Assembly (NCBI GenBank): GCA_965224465.1
Contig: OZ245049.1
Span: 2,430,001-2,462,000 of the forward strand
Length of the DNA: 32,000 nucleotides
Direction: 5' to 3'
Source of the DNA: Flavobacteriaceae bacterium
GTDB taxonomy: Bacteria > Bacteroidota > Bacteroidia > Flavobacteriales > Flavobacteriaceae
Part shown: positions 2,241 to 29,352 of the stretch, piece after piece
Position numbering within the stretch: position 1 is the stretch's first letter
How the letters are laid out: the number at the start of each line of letters is the position of its first letter
Translations under genes and position numbers: made by a program
Notes under the pieces: model-generated
Told to the model about the DNA's origin: nothing
The model's input: the letters and a program-made list of their open reading frames with translations, nothing else
Databases searched by the model: none

Positions 2241-2591
2241 TACAATTCTAAATTTACGTGGCTATCCGTAGAGAATATAAGAATGTTTTCCTTGATTGAT
2301 GATAAACCTAATTCAAAATGATTGCAACTGTACTTGGAAACATTGCTGATATACAACGCACAAATAGGTCCCAAGACAGAAAGATAGAATTGAACTAGCA
2401 AAGCTATAAGGTAAATACAAGAGGTCGCTTCAATGATTACACCAATTAAACCCCAATATAACCGATAAAAATATAAGACGGTAAAGATTGAGCTACCTAA
2501 TAGTAAATCACATAGAAGACACTAAATTAGATGAATAGACTTGCTGTTGGTCAAAAGATTGAAAGGCTGATGATGCTGGAAGCTTCATGAA

Positions 2592-3365: not shown

Positions 3366-3610
3366 AATTAGACTTAAAAGTAATCATAATTTAATTACTA
3401 AATTATAGTTCATCATTTTGCGTAGTTATTTTTTACGCTCGTCAAGCAAAAATAATTCTAAAAATGACTACTCAAAACAAAGCTCAAAGCTTAGCGACAT
3501 TGCGCAGCGGGTTTTAGAATACCTCACCAAAGTCACCTAAAAAGCATTATTAATAGGATCTGTTTTTCTGTTGCAATTTTCGCCCGCACTTCAATATCTA
3601 TTATCTTACA

Positions 3611-3758
3611 CCAACTACAATTCAAAATAATAGATATAAATAGTCTGTTTTACGTTCTAACATCATTGAAAAACAGAACGATAGCTATGACTATCCTTAG
3701 ATATATCGCCTAACTAAAACAATTACATTTCGAAACGGTCACTTGGAAATGTAGTTGG
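3611..3758 (+). repeat. Intergenic palindromic repeat family, copy A
   Basis: The 5' arm is ccaactacaattcaaaat and the 3' arm is cacttggaaatgtagttgg, which is its inverted complement. The interior is tagtctgttttacgttctaa...cagaacgatagctatgactatccttagat...ctaactaaaac. It aligns along its length to copies B-G. Confidence 0.85.
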
Positions 3759-3764
3759 AAGTAC

Positions 3765-4197
3765 TTAGCCTTGTCGATTTATATTGGTAGCTAGTATGAA
3801 TCCAAGTCCAAGTGGTTATTTCAACAACCCCGACTCCCCAATGACCAAGTCTCTAACAGAAACGCAACGTTATATAGGGGAAATAACGGGATCACATTTA
3901 GACAGAATAGACATCCAAACAGAAGTCAATCTAGTGCCTTTCAGAAAATTACCCTCCACACAATTGACAGCACCAAGTACAGAACTACGAAAACGAGTCA
4001 CAGCCACAAGAAAACATCAGACCATCATTACAATTACTTAAAACTGAAATAAAAAACTATCTACCAGAACTTATGACAAAATCTTAAATATAGCCAGAAC
4101 AATTGCAGATTTAGAATCTGTAGAGTATCTAGAATCACATCATATAGCAGAAGCCATACAATACCATAGTTTGGACAGCGAAAAATGGTTGCGTTAA
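3765..4197 (+). pseudogene. comM: Decayed duplicate of the comM 3' end, covering roughly codon 342 to the stop codon
   Basis: The nucleotide alignment to 1724-2240 is by eye and is roughly 85 percent identical. There is an internal deletion of about 90 bp after ...aaaacatcagacca and a second small deletion. Homology ends exactly at the stop codon (tggttgcgttaa versus tggctgggttga). No N-terminal part is present. The ORF-track entry 3784..4041 is a piece of this fragment. Confidence 0.85.
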
Positions 4198-4400
4198 CTT
4201 TTGCTCCTTATGAAACTACATGCTAATAACGAGGGAATTAACAGCGAAATCCACCTAAATAAACGTTAAAAAAAAATGCGAAACCTTCATACAAAAACAC
4301 TGAACATCAACCACTCATAGAAACAGGCGAGTCCAAAAAGGGGGAGTTTCACCCCTACAAGTTTATGCAAATACCGTCCGTGATTAAAACAATATAATTG

Positions 4401-4408
4401 TACCTTTG
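4401..4408 (+). promoter_or_regulatory. Candidate Bacteroidota -7 promoter box (TAccTTTG)
   Basis: Exact match to the TAnnTTTG -7 consensus. It lies 29 nt upstream of a 13-codon ORF and about 85 nt upstream of a terminator hairpin. Confidence 0.3.
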
Positions 4409-4436
4409 CACCATACAATAATTGAAAGATTGTTTT

Positions 4437-4478
4437 ATGGGAATTGCTAAATTATTAAAACATTTGTGGGGAATGTAA
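4437..4478 (+). other. Candidate 13-codon small ORF (MGIAKLLKHLWGM) or small transcript
   Basis: ATG..TAA mini-ORF located between a -7-like box (4401-4408) and an intrinsic terminator (4491-4520). There is no homology evidence. Confidence 0.15.
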
Positions 4479-4490
4479 ATAATTTAAAAG

Positions 4491-4520
4491 GCTCTTTAGT
4501 TTACTAAAGGGTCTTTTTTT
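4491..4520 (+). terminator. Rho-independent terminator-like hairpin followed by a T-run
   Basis: The stem pairs ctctttag with ctaaaggg (8 bp including one G-U), with a 4-nt loop, followed by tcttttttt. Confidence 0.5.
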
Positions 4521-4600
4521 CTGTCTTGACTTTTCGACTAAAAAAAGACACTGTCCCGTTTGTACTATTACAACAATACACAAGGCATCTCTGGATAACA

Positions 4601-4749
4601 CCAATTACAATCAAACTGACAGATATAAATAATTTATTTTACGTGCTAGCGTTTGTTGAAAAATAAAACAACAGCTATGGCTATCCCTAGATTTATCGCT
4701 TAGCTAAAAAAAAATCCATTACTAAACGGTGACTTGGAAATGTATTTGG
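4601..4749 (+). repeat. Intergenic palindromic repeat family, copy B
   Basis: ccaattacaatcaaactgacagatataaataatttattttacgtgctagcg...acagctatggctatccctagatttatcgcttagctaaaaa...ggtgacttggaaatgtatttgg. Collinear with the other copies. Confidence 0.85.
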
Positions 4750-4940
4750 TATTATACGTACTTTATAATCGATTTCTGTTTCGCCTGCACCACACTTGAC
4801 ACGGGGGATTACATTTACCGACGACCTCCTTCAGACTTAATAACACCCTCAACCTTCTTACCAATTACTACTCTTACCTCTCAAAAAGGCATACACAAAG
4901 ATTTACAATTTTCGAGACCATTACCATGCACTACAAACAA

Positions 4941-4970
4941 AAAAAGGCAGCCTTTTTGAAGGCTGCCTTT
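4941..4970 (-). terminator. Bidirectional intrinsic terminator downstream of ahcY
   Basis: A 9-bp perfect GC-containing stem pairs aaggcagcc with ggctgcctt. A/T runs flank it on both sides. It lies 23 nt past the ahcY stop. Confidence 0.75.
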
Positions 4971-4992
4971 AGACTATTTAAAATACGATAAA

Positions 4993-6309
4993 TTAATACC
5001 TGTAATATTCTGGTTTAAAAGGACCTTTTACAGTAACACCAATATATGCTGCTTGTTCCTCGCTTAAAGTTTCCAACTCAACACCAATTTTATCCAAGTG
5101 TAAACGGGCAACTTTCTCATCCAATATTTTCGGTAACATATACACCTCATTTTCGTAAGATGCTCTGTTATTCCAAAGTTCCAGTTGCGCCAATGTTTGG
5201 TTTGTAAACGAATTACTCATCACAAAACTAGGATGTCCTGTAGCACAACCTAAATTCACCAAACGACCTTCCGCTAAAATAATGATATCCTTACCGTCTA
5301 CAGTATATTTATCAACTTGAGGCTTAATTTCAACTTTGGTATCCCCATAGTTATCATTCAACCATCCAATTTCTATTTCGTTGTCAAAGTGACCGATATT
5401 ACAAACAATCGTCTTGTCTTTTAACATTTTAAAATGTTCAGCTCTCACAATTCCTTTATTACCAGTAGTTGTGATAATGATATCTGCATTGGGAGCAATT
5501 GTTTCCAATTTCTTCACTTCAAAACCATCCATAGCAGCTTGTAAAGCACAAATTGGATCTATTTCTGTAACGGTAACAATAGAACCAGCACCACGGAAAC
5601 TAGCAGCAGTACCTTTACCTACATCACCATATCCACAAACTACAACACGTTTTCCTGCCAACATAATATCTGTAGCTCTACGAATAGCATCTACAGCACT
5701 TTCTCTACATCCGTATTTATTATCGAATTTAGATTTTGTAACAGAATCATTTACGTTAATCGCAGGCATTGGAAGTGTTCCATTTTTCATACGATCGTAC
5801 AAACGATGAACTCCAGTAGTCGTTTCTTCAGACAAACCGTTAATTCCAGCCACTAATTCAGGATATCTATCCAACACCATATTGGTCAAATCACCACCAT
5901 CATCTAAAATAAGATTCAATGGTTTTTTATCTTCACCAAAAAATAATGTTTGCTCTATACACCAATCGAAATCCTTTTCATTCAATCCTTTCCAAGCATA
6001 CACAGAAACACCTGAAGCAGCAATTGCCGCAGCAGCTTGATCTTGCGTAGAAAAAATATTACAAGAACTCCAAGTCACCTCAGCACCTAACGCAACCAAT
6101 GTTTCTATCAACACTGCCGTTTGAATGGTCATGTGTAAACATCCTGCAATTCTAGCACCTTTTAAAGGCTGTTCGTCTTTATATTCTTCACGTAAACTCA
6201 TTAAGCCAGGCATCTCAGCCTCTGCCAATTCAATTTCTTTTCTTCCCCAATCAGCTAAAGAAATATCCTTAACTTTATAAGGTACATACGTTTTTGTATC
6301 TGTACTCAT
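4993..6309 (-). CDS. ahcY: Adenosylhomocysteinase (S-adenosyl-L-homocysteine hydrolase)
   Basis: Strong family resemblance: [37 protein letters not shown]..., the NAD-binding motif [10 protein letters not shown] and the C-terminal [12 protein letters not shown] place the start at the internal Met at 6309, because the 68-codon upstream extension of the ORF reads through repeat copy C. Confidence 0.93.
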
Positions 6310-6336
6310 ATTCTTATCTTTGTTCTTTATGAATTG

Positions 6337-6344
6337 CAAAAATA
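6337..6344 (-). promoter_or_regulatory. Candidate -7 promoter box (TAttTTTG) for ahcY
   Basis: The minus strand reads gacTAttTTTGcaattc, an exact TAnnTTTG match. It lies about 28 nt upstream of the ahcY ATG and outside repeat copy C. Confidence 0.45.
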
Positions 6345-6376
6345 GTCTAAAATCACAAATCAACACATAAGTAATA

Positions 6377-6529
6377 CCAATTAAATTTCCAAGTGAAGGT
6401 TTAGAAATGGAATTATTTTTTGTTTTAGCTAGACAAAAAATAGAAGGATAGCCCTCTATCGTTCTGTTTTTTAACAACACTAGCACGTAAAACAAACTAT
6501 GTATATCGGTCATTCTGAATTTTAATTGG
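6377..6529 (-). repeat. Intergenic palindromic repeat family, copy C
   Basis: The reverse complement reads ccaattaaaattcagaatgaccgatatacatagtttgttttacgtgctagtgttgttaaaaaacagaacgatagagggctatccttctat...ctagctaaaacaaaaaataattccatttctaaaccttcacttggaaatttaattgg. Confidence 0.88.
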
Positions 6530-6626
6530 TTGAAGACAAAATAATTAATTTTTTAACCACAATAAAGGCAATTTAACCAACTGTTTTGTTGATATTTACT
6601 GCTTATTTTAATTTTGAAACGTATAA

Positions 6627-11603: not shown

Positions 11604-11743
11604 CCTATTATTAATGTATTAAAATTTTATAAAACCCTTTTAAACTCCTCCACAACCTCCCTCTACAATGGAGCCGAACAATTAATATCATACAAAAAAC
11701 ACATCGATCTATTTCTAAATAGACTTGAGAATTATATGTAATA

Positions 11744-11912
11744 CCAATACATTTCCAAGTGACGTTTTAGAAATGGAATTATTTTTTGTTAATTCTAAAA
11801 AAGAACTTTCGGTAACAACCGCTATCGTACTATTTATCAACAACAACAAAAGAACAAAAAGACTTAGCTTACATCGATCCTTTAAATATGCTTTTAGCAC
11901 AATAGCAATTGA
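11744..11912 (-). repeat. Intergenic palindromic repeat family, copy D (the most diverged copy)
   Basis: The reverse-complement 3' half is near consensus: ...aacaaaaaataattccatttctaaaacgtcacttggaaatgtattggtattac. The 5' half (tcaattgctatt...cgatgtaagctaagtctttttgtt...agtacgatagc) is recognisable but carries indels. Confidence 0.7.
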
Positions 11913-13010: not shown

Positions 13011-13142
13011 ATACCAATATAAATGTTTTAGGAATATTCCCACAACAAAAGTAATGAGAATATTCTCATTAATCATGATTTAAAATAGTTTTTTTTCAAA
13101 AACACCTACACAAGGAAGCAACAGTGATAAAGCAAGATTAAA

Positions 13143-13298
13143 CATCGAAGAATCCAAAACAACAGATATACATAGTTTATTTACGTTTTAGCCTTGTTAA
13201 AAAACAGAACGGTAACTAAGGCTATCCTTCCACTTTCCGACTAGCTAAAACAAAAAACAACTCCATTTCTAAACCGTCACTTGGAAATGTAATTGATG
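13143..13298 (+). repeat. Intergenic palindromic repeat family, copy E
   Basis: ...aatccaaaacaacagatatacatagtttatttacgttttagccttgttaaaaaacagaacggtaactaaggctatccttcc...ctagctaaaacaaaaaacaactccatttctaaaccgtcacttggaaatgtaattgatg. Confidence 0.8.
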
Positions 13299-13395: not shown

Positions 13396-13404
13396 CAGTC
13401 AATC

Positions 13405-13480
13405 TCATAAGGGGTGCCGTAAGGCTGAGATCACACCCATCGAACCTAGAACAGGCAATGCTGTTTAGGGAAATCACGTA
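13405..13480 (+). promoter_or_regulatory. TPP (THI-box) riboswitch
   Basis: The sequence ggggtgccgtaaggctgagatcacacccatcgaacctagaacaggcaatgctgtttagggaa contains the conserved GGGGTGC, GCTGAGA, ACCC, GAACCT and TAGGGAA elements in the canonical order. It sits in the 5' leader of a TonB-dependent receptor. Confidence 0.85.
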
Positions 13481-13560
13481 CTATTTAGATATAGTCCAGG
13501 GAAGGTATATTATCAAACATCGATTAATCACCTCTTTTTATTCGTTTTATTTTAAAAAAA

Positions 13561-15924
13561 ATGAGACACCAAACTCTAATTATTGTGCTATTTGCACTCG
13601 TGATATCTACTTTTACAATAGATGCACAAACGTTCAATCTTAGTGGAAAAGTATTGAATCAAAACAAAGAAGCATTGGCAGGAGCTAGTGTAATTATCGC
13701 TAATAAAAGCCAAGGAACAACCACCAATTTCAAAGGTGAATACACGCTAAAACTAAGCAAAGGGAGCCATCAAATTACCGTAAGTTATATCGGTTACACA
13801 TCCAAAAAAACACAGCTAACTATTTCAAAAAACACCCTTCTTAACATCACTTTATCTGGAAACATAGAAAGTTTAGATGAAGTTATGGTAAATGCAGTCC
13901 GTGTAAAAGGAAATGCCCCTATTACCTATTCCAACATCAATAAAAAAGAATTAGAAAAGCGTAATTTAGGGCAAGATATCCCTACCTTATTAAACTTTTT
14001 ACCTTCGGTAGTTACTACTTCCGATGCGGGTGCAGGTGTAGGATATTCTGGAATTCGAGTACGTGGTAGTGATGCAACCCGTGTAAACATTACTATTAAT
14101 GGAATTCCTTATAATGATGCCGAAAGCCAAGGAACATACTGGGTAAATATGCCCGATTTTGCTTCTTCTACAGAAAGCATACAATTGCAACGTGGCGTAG
14201 GAACTTCTACCAATGGATCTGGTGCTTTTGGAGCCAGTATAAATATATTGACCAATGCTGTCTCAACAGAGCCATATGGAGAAATAAGCAGTTCATTTGG
14301 TTCTTATAATACTCAAAAACATACGGTAAAATTTAGTACTGGTCTATTGAACGATCGTATTGAAATAGCAGGAAGATTATCAAAAATAGATTCCGACGGA
14401 TACATAGATCGTGCTTGGAGTGATCTTAAATCATATTTCTTACAAGCAACTTATATAGATGACAACACAACAATCAAAGCCTTGACATTTGGAGGTCACG
14501 AAAAAACATACCAAGCTTGGGGAGGAATTACTAAAAAGCAACTAGAAAAGAACAGAAAACAAAATCCATATACCTATAAAAATGAGATTGACAATTACCA
14601 ACAGGATCATTTTCAATTTCACTGGAACCAACGTTATTCTGACGCTTGGTCAACCAATCTTGGATTGAACTACACAAAAGGAAAAGGATATTACGAGCAG
14701 TATAAAAAAGATCAAGACTTTGCTGATTACGACTTTACGCCTATTACCATGGGAGGAGAAACGATAAACACTACAGACTTGGTACGTCGCAGATGGTTAG
14801 ACAACAATTTTTACGTAGTAAACTTTAATACCAATTACAAAAAAGAGGGTCTAGACCTTATTGCTGGAGGTTCGTATAGCAATTACCAAGGCGATCATTT
14901 TGGAGAAGTAATATGGGCTCAAAATGCTGGAGGATCACAGTTAAGAGATCGCTATTATGAAAGTGATGCAAAAAAAATAGACAACAGCGTCTTTGCCAAA
15001 GCTACCTATAAACTAAGCGATAAACTTTCTATTTATGGAGATCTTCAAGGTAGGTTTCTAAATTACAAAACCAAAGGACAAACGTCTAAACGCGTCCCCA
15101 TTAATATAGATGCGAACTTCTCTTTCTTTAACCCAAAAGCAGGGGTTTCCTACGAATTAGACATTGATAATAGTTTTTATTTCTCTGTAGCTAGAGCCAA
15201 TAAAGAACCTAACAGAAATGATTTTGAAAACGGAATTAACCAATCGGAACAATTGACTGATTTTGAATTAGGACATCGCTTTAATAGTGCTAAAGTTCAA
15301 ATAAACACCAATGCTTATTATATGTCCTACAAAAACCAGTTAGTCCTAACAGGTGCTATCGACGACACTGGAGCTCCAGTACGTGCAACCAGTGGGAAAA
15401 GCTACAGATTAGGCTTAGAGATAGATGCAAACATTAAGGTATCAAACACGGTTACTTGGAGACCAAACCTAGCCTTAAGCAGTAATAAAAACACCGATTT
15501 TCATACCGTATTGGATGGCAAACTTACCAATTTAGGAACAACAGACTTGTCTTTTTCTCCAGATGTTATTGTTGGGAATATTTTTACCTATGCTCCGACA
15601 AGCAAATTACAATGTTCACTTCTATCAAAATATGTTAGCGAACAATTTATGGGAAATACCAGTGCTGAACAATCAAAGCTATTTGACTATTTTGTAAATG
15701 ATATAACTGCTAGTTATGTTTTTACTCCTAAAAGTATTTTTAAATCTATTACTTTAACCGCCATGGTAAATAACATTCTTAATGTGAAATATGTGTCTAA
15801 CGGCTATTATTTTACCTATGATGATACATGGACAGAAGCAGGAAAGACAACTACAATACACGGAGCTGGATACTACCCACAAGCCACTACAAACTTTTTA
15901 GCTGGCGCAACATTGAGGTTCTAG
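13561..15924 (+). CDS. TonB-dependent outer-membrane receptor with an N-terminal carboxypeptidase-regulatory-like domain; likely takes up thiamine or a thiamine precursor
   Basis: 787-aa ORF with a signal peptide, a CarbopepD_reg-like segment (GKVLNQNKEALAGASVII...GEYTLKL), a plug domain, a beta-barrel and a terminal aromatic residue (..GATLRF). The upstream TPP riboswitch is what suggests the substrate. Confidence 0.88.
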   Translation: MRHQTLIIVLFALVISTFTIDAQTFNLSGKVLNQNKEALAGASVIIANKSQGTTTNFKGEYTLKLSKGSHQITVSYIGYTSKKTQLTISKNTLLNITLSGNIESLDEVMVNAVRVKGNAPITYSNINKKELEKRNLGQDIPTLLNFLPSVVTTSDAGAGVGYSGIRVRGSDATRVNITINGIPYNDAESQGTYWVNMPDFASSTESIQLQRGVGTSTNGSGAFGASINILTNAVSTEPYGEISSSFGSYNTQKHTVKFSTGLLNDRIEIAGRLSKIDSDGYIDRAWSDLKSYFLQATYIDDNTTIKALTFGGHEKTYQAWGGITKKQLEKNRKQNPYTYKNEIDNYQQDHFQFHWNQRYSDAWSTNLGLNYTKGKGYYEQYKKDQDFADYDFTPITMGGETINTTDLVRRRWLDNNFYVVNFNTNYKKEGLDLIAGGSYSNYQGDHFGEVIWAQNAGGSQLRDRYYESDAKKIDNSVFAKATYKLSDKLSIYGDLQGRFLNYKTKGQTSKRVPINIDANFSFFNPKAGVSYELDIDNSFYFSVARANKEPNRNDFENGINQSEQLTDFELGHRFNSAKVQINTNAYYMSYKNQLVLTGAIDDTGAPVRATSGKSYRLGLEIDANIKVSNTVTWRPNLALSSNKNTDFHTVLDGKLTNLGTTDLSFSPDVIVGNIFTYAPTSKLQCSLLSKYVSEQFMGNTSAEQSKLFDYFVNDITASYVFTPKSIFKSITLTAMVNNILNVKYVSNGYYFTYDDTWTEAGKTTTIHGAGYYPQATTNFLAGATLRF

Positions 15925-15930
15925 ATTTTA

Positions 15931-15973
15931 CACCAAATGTATTTCTAAACACTCCTTTAGAAATACATTTGTG
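15931..15973 (+). terminator. Long perfect hairpin immediately after the TonB-dependent receptor stop
   Basis: caccaaatgtatttctaaa pairs with tttagaaatacatttgtg in a stem of about 17 bp with a 6-7 nt loop. No clear T-run follows. Confidence 0.55.
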
Positions 15974-15991
15974 TTATAATTAATTCTAAGT

Positions 15992-16034
15992 AAAAAAATC
16001 TAAGAGCAGCAAAAGCTATTCTTAGATTTTTTTT
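15992..16034. terminator. Bidirectional intrinsic terminator
   Basis: aaaaaaatctaaga pairs with tcttagatttttttt. The stem is flanked by an A-run and a T-run. Confidence 0.6.
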
Positions 16035-16137
16035 AACACAAAAAAGAATGCATTCAATCTGATTGACTACATTTTTGATCTGCTGCTCTGCTGCGCAAAG
16101 TCTCCCGACTTTGAGCTTTATTCTTATTTGTTACTGT

Positions 16138-16222
16138 CACGATTGTATCGTGTGACCGTAGCAGCTTATGAATTCCTAATATGAAGTCTTTTTACCTATT
16201 ACACGACTATATAGAAAACTAA
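16138..16222 (+). repeat. Roughly 85-bp direct repeat flanking the TA cassette (left copy), containing the palindrome cacgattgtatcgtg
   Basis: ctgtcacgattgtatcgtgtgaccgtagcagcttatgaattcc...tacacgactatatagaaaac aligns with 16872-16947 (ctttcacgattgtatcgtgtgatcgtagcagcttaggaatcc...tcacacgactaacctagaaac), with one internal indel block. Confidence 0.7.
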
Positions 16223-16273
16223 TAACTGCATGGTTTACTCATAGACGCTACACGATACAATCGGTAGTGGGGA

Positions 16274-16582
16274 TTATTTATTGATTCTTTTTATAACTAT
16301 TTCAGGGTATTTACTTGTATGCAAAACTCCAAAAATAATAACTCTCCGCTGTTCTTCTTCAACTAAATAGAAAATAGCATAAGGAAAACGAGTAACTAAA
16401 GATGGTCGTAACTCTTTATATTTTAGCTGATAATGTACTGGATATTTCCCAATATAATCGATTTCTTTTTCAACTTCTATTTTAAATTCTTTGGCTAATG
16501 TTTCGTTTTTATTCTGATACCATTTTTTAGCCTTTCGTAAATCTGTTTGTACGATTGGCAGTAATTGTATTTTTTAACACAT
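16274..16582 (-). pseudogene. RelE/ParE-family type II toxin with an in-frame TAA at codon 3; possibly inactivated or translated from a non-canonical start
   Basis: The minus strand reads ATG TGT TAA AAA ATA CAA TTA CTG... Its ATG overlaps the antitoxin stop (TAATG). After the TAA the frame stays open for 99 codons: KIQLLPIVQTDLRKAKKWYQNKNETLAKEFKIEVEKEIDYIGKYPVHYQLKYKELRPSLVTRFPYAIFYLVEEEQRRVIIFGVLHTSKYPE..., a typical Bacteroidota ParE/RelE pattern. The ORF track omits it because the frame has no ATG after the stop. Confidence 0.65.
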
Positions 16583-16845
16583 TACCAATCAAGCTTTACA
16601 TCTTCCCAATCTAAAATATTATCCGGGCTGTCTTTATAACTTTTTAAACGAGTATCTAACTCTTTTTTTTGTGCGGTAGAAATTTCTTGATACTCTTCTT
16701 TTTCTTGCTTTAAAACACGTTCTAAAGCCGTCATAATCTTCTCTTTATCTATACTGAATAATTCTTGTATAAAATTATATTTTCGTGCTTCTAAATCCAT
16801 AATACGTATCTTTTCACTTCTGTAAAGATACAAATTTTGTTCCAT
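16582..16845 (-). CDS. Putative addiction-module antitoxin component (Unstab_antitox / TIGR02574-like)
   Basis: The C-terminal KKELDTRLKSYKDSPDNILDWEDVKLDW matches the family signature. It lies immediately upstream of the ParE/RelE-like frame and is translationally coupled to it. The real start may be the Met at 16800 (MDLEARKYNFIQELF). Confidence 0.7.
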   Translation of the reverse strand: MEQNLYLYRSEKIRIMDLEARKYNFIQELFSIDKEKIMTALERVLKQEKEEYQEISTAQKKELDTRLKSYKDSPDNILDWEDVKLDW

Positions 16846-16871
16846 ATTTTTAATTCCCTTATTCTCCCCAC

Positions 16872-16947
16872 TTTCACGATTGTATCGTGTGATCGTAGCA
16901 GCTTAGGAATCCGTGCGCACCCACATTCACACGACTAACCTAGAAAC
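16872..16947 (+). repeat. Roughly 85-bp direct repeat flanking the TA cassette (right copy)
   Basis: See 16138-16222. In addition, an inverted partial copy at 16248-16274 (reverse complement tccccactaccgattgtatcgtgtagc) mirrors 16865-16892 (tccccactttcacgattgtatcgtgtga). Confidence 0.7.
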
Positions 16948-17199
16948 AGTACACAATTATGTTGTTGACAGTGTTTTAACGCATTTATAATTACGTATTT
17001 CTGATTCAACCGCGTAAATACATCTACCCAGCCTACCGTTTAATAGTTATAATTAAGCCTCTTCTGTTTCTGTTGCTTTATATTTGGTTGACATATTTTT
17101 TAGTTTACTATTATTTTTTCTTTTTTTAAGCTTTGAGTGAGCAACCTTACGTGACGCACTTTGTGGGCACGGATTGTAAATCCGCGCTATCACGTGGGC

Positions 17200-17379
17200 G
17201 GTATGTCCGCGCCATCGGGTTCATGCATTCTAAAGGTATAGTTCAGACTATTCCCTTCCCCCTTAACTTCATCATACATTTCCTGCCCTTGGAAGCCGTA
17301 CCTATAATCAGGCGTATTGTGATGCCTGTTTGGTAGCAACACCCCAAACACATACCCCCCTACACAGTTTTAAATAATA
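17200..17379 (-). pseudogene. Orphan fragment resembling the C-terminal tip of an RHS/YD-repeat core, truncated by GC-rich hairpin repeats
   Basis: The minus-strand frame reads ...[34 protein letters not shown]|DGADIPPT*. The YRYGFxGxE...[12 protein letters not shown].(D/E)P pattern matches my recollection of the conserved RHS-associated core end in Bacteroidota. There is no start codon. The frame breaks where the expected R.GRF..DP motif should follow, inside gcgcggacataccgcccac. Confidence 0.4.
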
Positions 17380-17414
17380 TTTTAAAGAACTTACAACAGT
17401 TAAATGTAACTAAA

Positions 17415-17446
17415 AAAGCAAGACCTTTTGGGGTTCTTGCTTTTTG
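17415..17446. terminator. Bidirectional intrinsic terminator, downstream of the disrupted YwqK-like gene
   Basis: aaaagcaagacc pairs with ggttcttgcttttt. The stem is flanked by an A-run and a T-run. Confidence 0.6.
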
Positions 17447-17534
17447 TTGGATTATATTTGTTGTTTGCTGCGAAGTCAGAGACTATCGCAGAGCTGTATT
17501 TTTTTATTTAAACTTTGCGGAGCGGGAATTCTCA

Positions 17535-17757
17535 TTACCAATTAGTATATGGATATACTCCCCACATATGAGAACCTCCATTTTTATCTATATAAACATA
17601 ATAACTCCATAGTTCATGTACATGAGGAAAACAATACCAAGTCTCTTCTTTCAATCTTCCAATAGTATCATATGTTTTTTTGGTGTTACCCCTAAAATAC
17701 CATTTGATATCCTTATTTTTTTTATCGAAATAAATTTTTTTGATTTTATTGTTATGC
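17535..17757 (-). pseudogene. YwqK/MORN-variant-repeat-like small protein (a type of immunity protein), interrupted near its 5' end by IS30
   Basis: The minus-strand frame reads QHNNKIKKIYFDKKNKDIKWYFRGNTKKTYDTIGRLKEETWYCFPHVHELWSYYVYIDKNGGSHMWGVYPYTNW*. A matching 5' piece with an ATG (MCFVKIDFIFN) lies at about 18880-18913 on the far side of the IS. The two pieces join in frame if about 1.12 kb is removed. Confidence 0.45.
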
Positions 17758-18880
17758 TGAATTCAAGTCACAAACGCAACTTTTAGTTAAATAATAATTG
17801 TTCCATTACAAATATAGGATTTTGATATTTATGTCTCTTCCTAGGTCTGTTATTTAATTTTGTTTCTACCTCTTTGATTCTTTGATCTGTTAGGTTTGTA
17901 AAGTCACTTCCTTTGGCAAAATATTGTCTAATCAAACCATTTAAATTTTCGTTAGATCCTCTTTCCCAAGAGTGATATGGATGCGCAAAAAAGTAATCAA
18001 TACATAAATTTTCTGCAACCTGCTCATGGCCTGCAAATTCTTTTCCATTATCAGCTGTTATAGTATGTAGATAAGGCTTCCAGTCTTCTAATATTTCATT
18101 GATAGCTTTAGTGACAACAACTGCTTCTTTAGAGCTTACTTTTTTCATTTTAAGCATTCCAGAAGCTCTATCATTTACGGTAAGTATGGCTTGATTATGG
18201 TTTTTACCTATGATTAAATCGACCTCTAAATCTCCAAATCGATTTCTTTGTTCAACAACTTCAGGGCGTTGTTCTATACTAATACGATTCTTTATAACCC
18301 CTCTAGAATCCTTTGATGAGCCACGTTTTCTATATCTCCTTCCCTGTCTGCGAAGGTGTGTATGTAAATCACCATCATTCCTCTTGTCTTCCCTAATATG
18401 CTGATATATACGCTCAATAGACACCGTTTCTTTACCTTGTTTTTTTAGGACACCAACTACTTGCTCAGGACTATAATCGTCTCGCAATAACAACTCTATT
18501 GCTTGTTGAATATCTTCTGTAAAGCGTTTTCTTTTAGGCTTTTCTTTATGACGTTTAGCATACTTTTTTTGGGCTAATTCATGCTTGTAAACTCCATTTC
18601 TTTTGTCTGAATTACGCTTAATCTCTTTGCTAATAACAGACTTGTCTTTTCCTATAGCAGCTGCTATCTCAACCTGTTTATAACCTTGTTTTAACATGCA
18701 ACAAATTGTGTATCTTTGCGCTTGGGTGATGTGTTTCATACAACTTCTTTTTTCGAGATTTGAGACCGTAAGATACATATCCATCAAGACAAGAAAGGTA
18801 GGTTTTCCTACTTTTCTGTTTTGAAAATATAACCATCATAGAATCAAATCGAAAAGTTGCGTTTATTAGTTGAATTTAAG
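17758..18880 (-). mobile_element. IS30-family insertion sequence (about 1.12 kb)
   Basis: Single transposase ORF with imperfect terminal inverted repeats: the left end is (t)gaattcaagtcacaaacgcaactttt, and the reverse complement of the right end is ttaaattcaactaataaacgcaactttt. The exact ends are uncertain by about 3 bp, and I could not identify a target-site duplication. Confidence 0.85.
17783..18739 (-). CDS. IS30 family transposase
   Basis: MKHITQAQRYTICCMLKQGYKQVEIAAAIGKDKSVISKEIKRN is the helix-turn-helix N-terminus typical of IS30. A DDE core is present (DLEVDLI..., ITADNGKEF, SWERGSNENLNGLIRQY). I chose the start at the Met at 18739; the ORF extends to 18787. Confidence 0.9.
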   Translation of the reverse strand: MKHITQAQRYTICCMLKQGYKQVEIAAAIGKDKSVISKEIKRNSDKRNGVYKHELAQKKYAKRHKEKPKRKRFTEDIQQAIELLLRDDYSPEQVVGVLKKQGKETVSIERIYQHIREDKRNDGDLHTHLRRQGRRYRKRGSSKDSRGVIKNRISIEQRPEVVEQRNRFGDLEVDLIIGKNHNQAILTVNDRASGMLKMKKVSSKEAVVVTKAINEILEDWKPYLHTITADNGKEFAGHEQVAENLCIDYFFAHPYHSWERGSNENLNGLIRQYFAKGSDFTNLTDQRIKEVETKLNNRPRKRHKYQNPIFVMEQLLFN

Positions 18881-18954
18881 ATTAAAAATGAAGTCTATTT
18901 TCACAAAGCACATCCTTTTTAAAAAGACGTCCTTAATTATAGGTATACACAGTT

Positions 18955-24805: not shown

Positions 24806-24856
24806 AGTTGGACAAAGATACACAATAGGGATGAAAAAATTACTGCTAATAGTATA

Positions 24857-25011
24857 CCAATTAGAAACCAAAATTACTGCTATAAATAGTTTGTTTTACG
24901 TTCTAGCGTTGTTAAAAAACAGAACGATAGCTAGGGCTATACTTAGATGTATCGCCTAGCTAAAACAAAAAATAATTACATTCCTAAACCATCACTTGAA
25001 AATATATTTGG
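24857..25011 (+). repeat. Intergenic palindromic repeat family, copy F (near consensus)
   Basis: ccaattagaaaccaaaattactgctataaatagtttgttttacgttctagcgttgttaaaaaacagaacgatagctagggctatacttagatgtatcgcctagctaaaacaaaaaataattacattcctaaaccatcacttgaaaatatatttgg. Confidence 0.88.
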
Positions 25012-25058
25012 TATTACACTGTAAACTTTGAGCTAGCTAAACATAAAAAAAAGAGCAT

Positions 25059-29218: not shown

Positions 29219-29230
29219 CTATATAATATC

Positions 29231-29336
29231 ACTTAAAATCCAAAATGACCGATATAAATAGTTTATTTTACGTTCTAGCGTTGTTAAAAAATAATTCCAT
29301 ATCTAAACCTTCACTTGGAAATTTAATTGAGGTTGG
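29231..29336 (+). repeat. Intergenic palindromic repeat family, copy G (internally deleted)
   Basis: acttaaaatccaaaatgaccgatataaatagtttattttacgttctagcgttgttaaaaaa|taattccatatctaaaccttcacttggaaatttaattgaggttgg. About 55 bp of the central part is missing, between two A-runs. Both arms are retained. Confidence 0.8.
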
Positions 29337-29352
29337 TATAAATAAACGCTTT

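Follow-up and report, generated by a model that had tools for sequence, protein, structure and literature searches.

The window analysed here is a stretch of 32,000 nucleotides from a Flavobacteriaceae genome, and its intergenic regions contain eight copies or fragments of one repeat: five near-full copies, a solo end, and two partial copies, of which one is internally deleted and the other keeps only the 3' half. The 25-nt core of the repeat has seven matches in the window against 0.02 expected, and the nhmmer E-values of the copies range from ~1e-13 to ~1e-50. The full-length copies are A (3609..3760, plus strand, ~152 nt; E = 7e-45), B (4599..4751, plus; E = 1e-43), C (6375..6531, minus; E = 3e-49), E (13141..13298, plus; E = 4e-46), and F (24855..25013, plus; E = 2e-50). 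Copy D (11742..11844, minus; E = 6e-13) consists of the 3' part only, without the 5' arm, while copy G (29227..29338, plus) has lost ~53 nt from its center. The solo 5' arm H (2441..2473, plus; ACCAATTAAACCCCAATATAACCGATAAAAATA) has neither an internal part nor a 3' arm. The copies lie exclusively between genes, in either orientation, and the element is 152-160 nt long, which falls within the size range of MITEs.

Distribution and insertion sites of the repeat

Beyond the window, at least four further copies are present in two related MAGs, NORP129 and NORP167, where the flanks are unrelated and housekeeping genes are adjacent. A scan of the genome contigs with an 18-base core gave four real copies and 45 chance matches among the 49 loci listed. 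In metagenomes, a 25-base 3' pattern had no match and a 5' pattern recovered one solo 5' end (L086), which has no transposase with it. Viral scans with two 3' patterns and one 5' pattern returned no match or chance matches only. Altogether, the repeat occurs as full, internally deleted, half, and solo-end forms, and its multiple dispersed copies, combined with presence/absence differences between related genomes, are as expected of MITEs.

Searches for SNF2 and AhcY homologues yielded one usable relative (L050; 88.5% nucleotide identity in ahcY), and its orthologous locus lacks copies B and C. Copy A adjoins a comM fragment, and its 3' junction falls precisely on a TTA present in the intact comM paralogue. 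The repeat also marks rearrangement junctions, such as that of the truncated comM paralogue. Both empty sites come from sequences that are only 85-88% identical, so their junctions are blurred. All eight copies have TWA-like flanks: TAA...TAA is exact in copies L010, L037, and G, the three least-diverged two-ended copies, and the flanks are degenerate in older ones. The duplication would be 2 or 3 bp long, with a 2-bp reading (TA or CA) fitting four copies equally well.

The intergenic positions, both orientations, truncated derivatives, TWA flanks, and absence at the orthologous locus together point to a non-autonomous fold-back MITE. We therefore hold, with moderate confidence, that the repeat is a ~155-bp non-coding family of this kind in a marine Flavobacteriaceae lineage. 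A transposase encoded elsewhere would cut the inverted ends and place new copies in AT-rich TWA targets, with a probable duplication of 2-3 bp. Within the window, no autonomous partner sharing the ends of the element was found. Its only transposase belongs to an IS30-family element (17783-18787), which we rejected as a partner because its inverted repeats are unrelated (shuffle P 0.36-0.89).

Folding and covariation of the arms

The element is imperfectly palindromic from end to end, with a left half that approximates the reverse complement of the right half, and each strand is able to fold back on itself into a rod of ~59 pairs. Nine full copies were gathered in all. The consensus rod has 53 to 59 pairs with 83.7% of cells paired, and helix 1 has 26 pairs with 76% of cells paired. 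The terminal inverted repeats, as in MITEs, are ~25 nt long and imperfect (...YA-CCAATTAMAATCCAAAATGACCG / CGTCACTTGGAAATKTAATTGG-YA...), with a core box of 9-10 bp. When individual copies were folded, as the initial annotation had proposed, the young, least-diverged copies gave z-scores of -5 to -7.3, but the older ones reached only -1.3 to -2.9.

At the center of the rod, copies other than C carry the hairpin GATAGCTARGG-CTAT-CCTTAGAT; in A, B, E, L037, and L013 this hairpin has imperfections that no second change compensates. The hairpin of copy C (6439..6460, minus strand) has been rebuilt as GATAGAGGG-CTAT-CCTTCTATT, followed by TTTTG; the restored stem that had been described for it is indeed in the sequence, with 8-9 bp and one G·T. 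This rebuilt hairpin scores as terminator-like, but it is the only one to do so, and a promoter or terminator carried by the repeat was rejected since none is conserved. Template switching at quasi-palindromes, a hairpin-templated correction that would produce matched changes without selection, perfects hairpins by several bases in one step, much like the indel and AG>CT of copy C (PMC8794818, PMC7202029). It is a mutational mechanism rather than an element family (PMC8794818, PMC7202029) and only a candidate here; the new stem of copy C retains a G·T that exact templating would have removed.

The case for selection on a folded nucleic acid was originally made from this central hairpin and from matched substitutions in the arms of copies A and C. 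The arm substitutions of copy A are present as described, a T>C change being matched by A>G in the opposite arm (CCAACTACA at 3611-3619 and TGTAGTTGG at 3750-3758, plus strand). The matched change of copy C, an A/T variant at box position 8, is present as well (C>A matched by G>T in the opposite arm; minus strand, 5' arm CCAATTAAA at 6529-6521, 3' arm TTTAATTGG at 6385-6377), but it is not private: G, L010, and L037 carry the same variant, which makes it one subfamily event. A third matched event, A>T with T>A, lies in L013 at box position 3. The remaining copies had been credited with the consensus apart from single mismatches in B and F, which proves too generous. Copy B does have one T·T mismatch (CCAATTACA at 4601-4609 and TGTATTTGG at 4741-4749, plus strand), but F has two mismatches in its terminal box, E has a degenerate 5' terminal box, the 5' arm of D is missing, and the arms of G are altered.

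Could such matches arise with no folding constraint at all? A MITE descended from a palindromic founder would then owe its matched variants to chance double hits and inheritance from variant masters. We consider this unlikely, and the numbers that bear on it depend on the part of the rod that is counted. In the 9-bp terminal box, a neutral simulation of independent sites in seven copies expects 0.29 matched pair-restoring double changes, whereas three independent ones are observed. The corresponding P(>=3) is 0.003, or 0.026 if the box evolves 1.5 times faster and 0.10 at twice the rate, and these values are flattering because the box was chosen after the matches had been seen. Over all 59 pairs, which give no clear excess, double changes occur in 8 pairs against 4.7 +/- 1.6 in shuffles (19 of 500 as high), and sliding the structure by +3 columns likewise yields 8, as the absence of constraint would allow, although the covariation score was reached by only 1 of 500 shuffles. 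Counted as events, double changes restore pairing in 6 of 10 cases compared to a fraction of ~0.33 to 0.375 expected, which is not significant.

The initial annotation had itself named copying from variant masters as the scenario that would undo its claim. One of its two arm events is indeed a subfamily marker, inherited by four copies, which is that scenario. In the internal stems, compensatory changes are not in excess. Pairs are broken by 38 of the 68 one-sided changes, and the fraction of cells differing from the consensus is 0.116 in paired and 0.096 in unpaired columns, which leaves the stems no more conserved than the loops. The initial observation is largely borne out, whereas its reading as selection on a folded nucleic acid has only partial support: the terminal-box arms co-vary beyond independent decay, but the rest of the rod shows no excess. 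We agree with the initial annotation that independently bound transposase sites would not be expected to change in step.

For the fold-back MITE that we favor, the matched arm variants may arise in a few copying "master" lineages, where either selection acting on a snap-back single strand or correction templated by the hairpin as it replicates would maintain the complementarity of the arms. Such variants would afterwards be inherited as subfamily markers, and inserted copies would decay without structural repair.

Strand bias and the nature of the folded strand

One-sided transitions at Watson-Crick pairs are unevenly distributed, giving G·U rather than A·C in a ratio of 22:8 on one strand (p = 0.016). 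All six non-Watson-Crick transition-type pairs of the consensus are likewise G·U on that strand, which runs opposite to the orientation of copy A. A mutational strand bias was rejected as the source, as the overall transition spectrum is symmetric; a repeat free of folding constraint would have to attribute the excess to sampling noise. On the same reverse strand, the RNA fold is more stable in nine of nine copies, by 2.4 to 23 kcal/mol, whereas both strands fold about equally with DNA energy parameters. Neither the G·U bias nor the stability of the reverse-strand RNA is predicted by a purely double-stranded-DNA mechanism.

A tentative proposal, which we also rate as unlikely, is that the selected and copied unit is the snap-back single strand of one strand. 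It might take the form of an RNA rod, such as an RNase III substrate tuning neighboring mRNAs, or of a ssDNA transposition intermediate in an element that otherwise resembles an ordinary cut-and-paste MITE with target duplications. Such a unit would account for the matched variants of the ends together with the G·U excess of 22:8.

Less probable again is a structured RNA proper, either a UTR cis-module or a small RNA gene carried by the repeat, in which selection would act on the reverse-strand rod and the matched changes would be truly compensatory. The greater RNA stability of the reverse strand, the wobble excess, and the symmetric transition spectrum would all suit this reading. The RNAalifold energy is -20.3 kcal/mol on the reverse strand and -5.1 on the forward strand, but its covariation term is a penalty on both, and composition-corrected z-scores are nearly alike on the two strands in six of the nine copies. 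Rfam 15 has no match for any copy, at gathering thresholds or at E <= 5. The orientation relative to co-directional neighboring genes is mixed, with F and L018 sense and D, L037, and L013 antisense. Stems that are no better conserved than loops, one-sided changes that mostly break pairs, a promoter and terminator that are not conserved, and the absence of the element from the orthologous locus also argue against a structured RNA.

Most improbable is a hairpin-recognised ssDNA element of the REPIN/RAYT type or derived from IS200/IS605, in which a Y1/HUH transposase would read the folded strand and the arms must stay complementary: the full-length hairpin, matched arm variants, and strand-specific wobble bias are in its favor, but HUH elements, whose ends are asymmetric, are not known to duplicate their target, whereas here the inverted repeats run to the very ends between TWA triplets on both flanks, no Y1 transposase was found among the window proteins scanned or beside the NORP copies, the 155 nt with complex internal stems are unlike a REP pair of ~20 nt each, and the two strands fold about equally as DNA. 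The initial annotation had put forward such substrates; the full-length hairpin stands, but the flanking repeats and end-reaching inverted repeats fit a MITE better.

Relationship to known elements and effects on annotation

In overall architecture, the repeat resembles the Correia elements of Neisseria (CREE/NEMIS) and the ERIC/IRU elements of enterobacteria. These are intergenic imperfect palindromes of ~100-160 bp with inverted ends of ~25 bp and TA-containing insertion sites, and they can form a long whole-element hairpin when transcribed. On the Correia and ERIC/IRU side, the comparison also takes in transcription, processing by RNase III, and functions related to promoters or IHF. The repeat described here has no known sequence similarity to them, belongs to a different phylum, and probably targets TWA rather than TA.

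Compared to bacterial MITEs in general, the repeat is alike in its length, which lies within 50-800 bp, and in being non-coding; its terminal inverted repeats reach at least 10-15 bp, its flanks carry short repeats, and its many intergenic copies would depend on a transposase acting in trans (PMC11602168). It differs in that palindromy spans the whole element and not just the ends, and in that no autonomous partner was found within the window. REPINs are also non-autonomous, with a long hairpin as the replicating unit and with compensatory changes reported to be common, which had counted toward a hairpin-recognised element (PMC3116915). However, they consist of two short REPs and a spacer, are associated with a single-copy RAYT gene, and are thought to move as ssDNA (PMC3116915), while the repeat here has end-to-end inverted repeats, TWA flanks, and conserved blocks that are not two short REPs. 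It is also unlike an IS200/IS605-type substrate (PATE), which has asymmetric ends with subterminal hairpins and lacks terminal inverted repeats, as its ends pair with each other to the termini.

MITE families have already been catalogued by the thousands in Flavobacterium and other Bacteroidota (PMC11602168). The repeat would be an ordinary new family of a known type, and on present evidence it adds one more MITE family to the phylum. If the covariation of the ends and the wobble bias hold genome-wide, it would be a Bacteroidota MITE with a constrained folded single strand, beyond transposase-binding ends, a constraint so far documented mainly for REPINs.

The repeat also affects gene annotation. 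A small conserved ORF was rejected by six-frame translation, which shows that A, B, E, F, and L037 either lack the start codon or have an interrupted frame. A protein database search with the translated element returned three called ORFs and nothing else, each of them from the genome to which the window belongs. These three tiny database "proteins" are spurious calls produced by the repeat, as is a false 506-aa extension of ahcY, and within the window a gene caller annotated copy G as a 47-aa ORF (P0123).

Anatomy and distribution of the fold-back repeat

Repeat finding and alignment across the window gave a non-coding element of about 155 nt, longer than the boxes of the initial annotation. 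Copies A (3609-3760, +), B (4599-4751, +), C (6375-6531, -), E (13141-13298, +; 5' box degenerate) and F (24855-25013, +) are full length; D (11742-11844, -) retains the 3' part only, G (29227-29338, +) has its central part deleted, and H (2441-2473, +) is a solo 5' arm. The window contains seven matches to a 25-nt core pattern versus 0.02 expected, and nhmmer E-values for the copies range from 6e-13 to 2e-50. The window has a G+C content of 35% and carries housekeeping genes of Flavobacteriaceae type.

The element is an imperfect palindrome from end to end: the arms, CCAATTAMAATCCAAAATGACCG and CGTCACTTGGAAATKTAATTGG, are followed inward by complementary blocks up to an apical GATAGC-N4-GCTATC. 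RNAalifold predicts a 53-pair rod on the reverse strand (-20.3 kcal/mol; forward is the orientation of copy A), or 59 pairs with 1x1 mismatches included (83.7% of cells paired), versus only 27 pairs on the forward strand (-5.1 kcal/mol). Folded singly, C, L010 and L037 (the last two from other genomes, see below) have z-scores of -5.0 to -7.3, whereas those of A, B, E and F lie between -1.3 and -2.9; the predicted fold is near-perfect in young copies and decayed in old ones.

A six-frame check across copies found no conserved ORF, Rfam gave zero matches for the element, no promoter or terminator is conserved across copies, and the copies have no consistent direction relative to genes. The translated element matched just three small ORFs among 5.8 billion protein clusters, all on one 5,241,564-bp contig. 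This contig belongs to the genome of the window, since one of the three ORFs, P0123, is copy G and the SNF2 protein encoded on it, P0124, is 100% identical to that of the window. Spurious ORFs do arise from element copies, G included. The ahcY frame is open through copy C, producing a false 506-aa ORF (4993-6513, -; the real protein has 438 aa and starts at 6309), and the 39-47-aa "proteins" P0121-P0123 in public databases are translated element copies of this genome.

A genome-collection scan recovered at least four true copies in two Flavobacteriaceae MAGs, NORP129 (L010) and NORP167 (L013, L018, L037), with unrelated flanks, housekeeping genes as neighbours and no transposase beside them. 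Metagenome and viral scans yielded nothing beyond one solo 5' end, L086, whose sequence past the 5' arm is similar to an extra segment in L018. This related segment of ~25 nt (C..CAATC.AGTTGAG.ACA...TTTTTT) lies immediately after the 5' arm (L018 4826-4848; L086 ~2126-2154, -), and may be a trace of a longer variant of the element or of its parent form.

Insertion and target site

The element is an insertion. A JGI contig from a relative (L050) is orthologous over PPTase-ahcY (81.5% and 88.5% nucleotide identity) and lacks both copies C and B, with 27 nt versus 190 in the window and 101 nt versus 409, respectively. TWA-like flanks occur in all eight copies having both ends, and are exactly TAA...TAA in the three least-diverged copies; a 2-bp reading may also fit.

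The 3' third of comM (Mg-chelatase-like, ORF 705-2240) is duplicated, and the second copy, which carries deletions, is cut exactly at the 3' end of copy A. This decayed comM 3' end (3762-4195) is 85-87% identical to 1712-2238. In the intact gene the homology begins exactly at the TTA within ACCG|TTA|CTTACC, so the junction suggests either that a MITE inserted into a comM paralogue or that MITE copies recombined with each other.

Matched substitutions and their origin

The initial annotation took matched changes in the arms and central hairpin as a sign of selection on a folded nucleic acid. The matched arm changes of copy A (T>C with A>G) are present as claimed, as is the rebuilt central hairpin of copy C, ATAGAGGG-CTAT-CCTTCTAT (8-9 bp, one G·T). 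The arm changes of copy C (C>A with G>T) are also real, but not private: G, L010 and L037 have them too, so they represent a single inherited event. Copy F has two box mismatches rather than one, and E, D and G depart from the consensus arms they were said to carry. L013 supplies a third matched arm event.

Covariation was analysed across nine full copies. Over the whole structure, eight pairs changed on both sides versus 4.7 +/- 1.6 in shuffles (19/500 as high), and sliding the structure by +3 columns also gave eight; the covariation score of 0.164 (shuffles, 0.137) was reached by one shuffle in 500. Among the 49 Watson-Crick pairs of the consensus, one-sided changes led to G·U (22 events), A·C (8) or another mismatch (30), and two-sided changes restored the pair in six events and not in four. 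The restoring fraction, 6/10 versus ~0.35 expected, is not significant, and two of the six restoring doubles sit in the poorly aligned end of L018. Conservation is no higher in paired columns than in unpaired ones (0.116 versus 0.096 differ from consensus), and central hairpin mismatches are uncompensated in A, B, E, L037 and L013. The matched-change excess is limited to the 9-bp terminal box, with three independent events versus 0.29 expected (P = 0.003, or 0.10 if the box, chosen post hoc, evolves 2x faster than the rest).

On the reverse strand, one-sided transitions at Watson-Crick pairs favour G·U over A·C (22 versus 8, p = 0.016), and all six consensus wobble pairs are G·U. The transition spectrum lacks strand bias (25:22 in paired columns, 9:5 in unpaired), and gene context shows no orientation bias. 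RNA folding energy favours the reverse strand in 9/9 copies; DNA energy parameters barely separate the strands, and composition-corrected z-scores differ little between them in 6/9 copies. We treat this strand effect as a lead, not a finding.

Altogether, the element is probably best read as a fold-back MITE that is mobilised in trans. The window's IS30-family insertion sequence (17749-18887; 36-nt inverted repeats 17749-17784 and 18852-18887), with its transposase at 17783-18787 (-; 334 aa, HTH_38 + rve), does not qualify as the mobilising partner, its ends being unrelated to those of the MITE. The matched end variants would most likely originate in copying master lineages and be inherited as subfamily markers. 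Arm complementarity in the masters may be kept by selection acting on a snap-back strand, which has been argued for REPINs (PMC3116915), or by hairpin-templated correction (PMC8794818, PMC7202029); nine copies cannot separate the two. After insertion, MITE copies would decay neutrally. Flavobacterium and Bacteroidota are rich in MITEs (PMC11602168), making this a new family of a known type, of modest interest.

Other features of the window

A perfect 16-bp hairpin, CAAATGTATTTCTAAA...TTTAGAAATACATTTG, lies at 15928-15986, directly past a TonB-dependent receptor gene (13561-15924). The hairpin and its flanks (TTACACCAAAT... / ...TTGTGTTATAA) are similar to the element's ends and 3' hairpin; it may derive from the element by extreme reduction, or be a terminator with a related origin. 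Upstream of the same gene, ~100 nt downstream of copy E, is a TPP-riboswitch-like sequence (13400-13488, +) scoring 41.6 bits (E = 5e-5), below the Rfam gathering score of 54.3. A 41-nt direct repeat (16133-16173 and 16870-16910; 93% identical, 737 nt apart) is located in the ORF-poor stretch 16000-17750 adjoining the IS30-family element. Finally, a 110-nt non-coding block (window 4414-4523, L050 2297-2406) is 87.5% conserved in L050 despite differing gene neighbours. At its end is a strong hairpin (4486-4517) that, with the T run after it, resembles a terminator. The short ATG-initiated frame within the block is interrupted by an indel in one organism relative to the other, so the block probably represents a small RNA or a leader and not a peptide.
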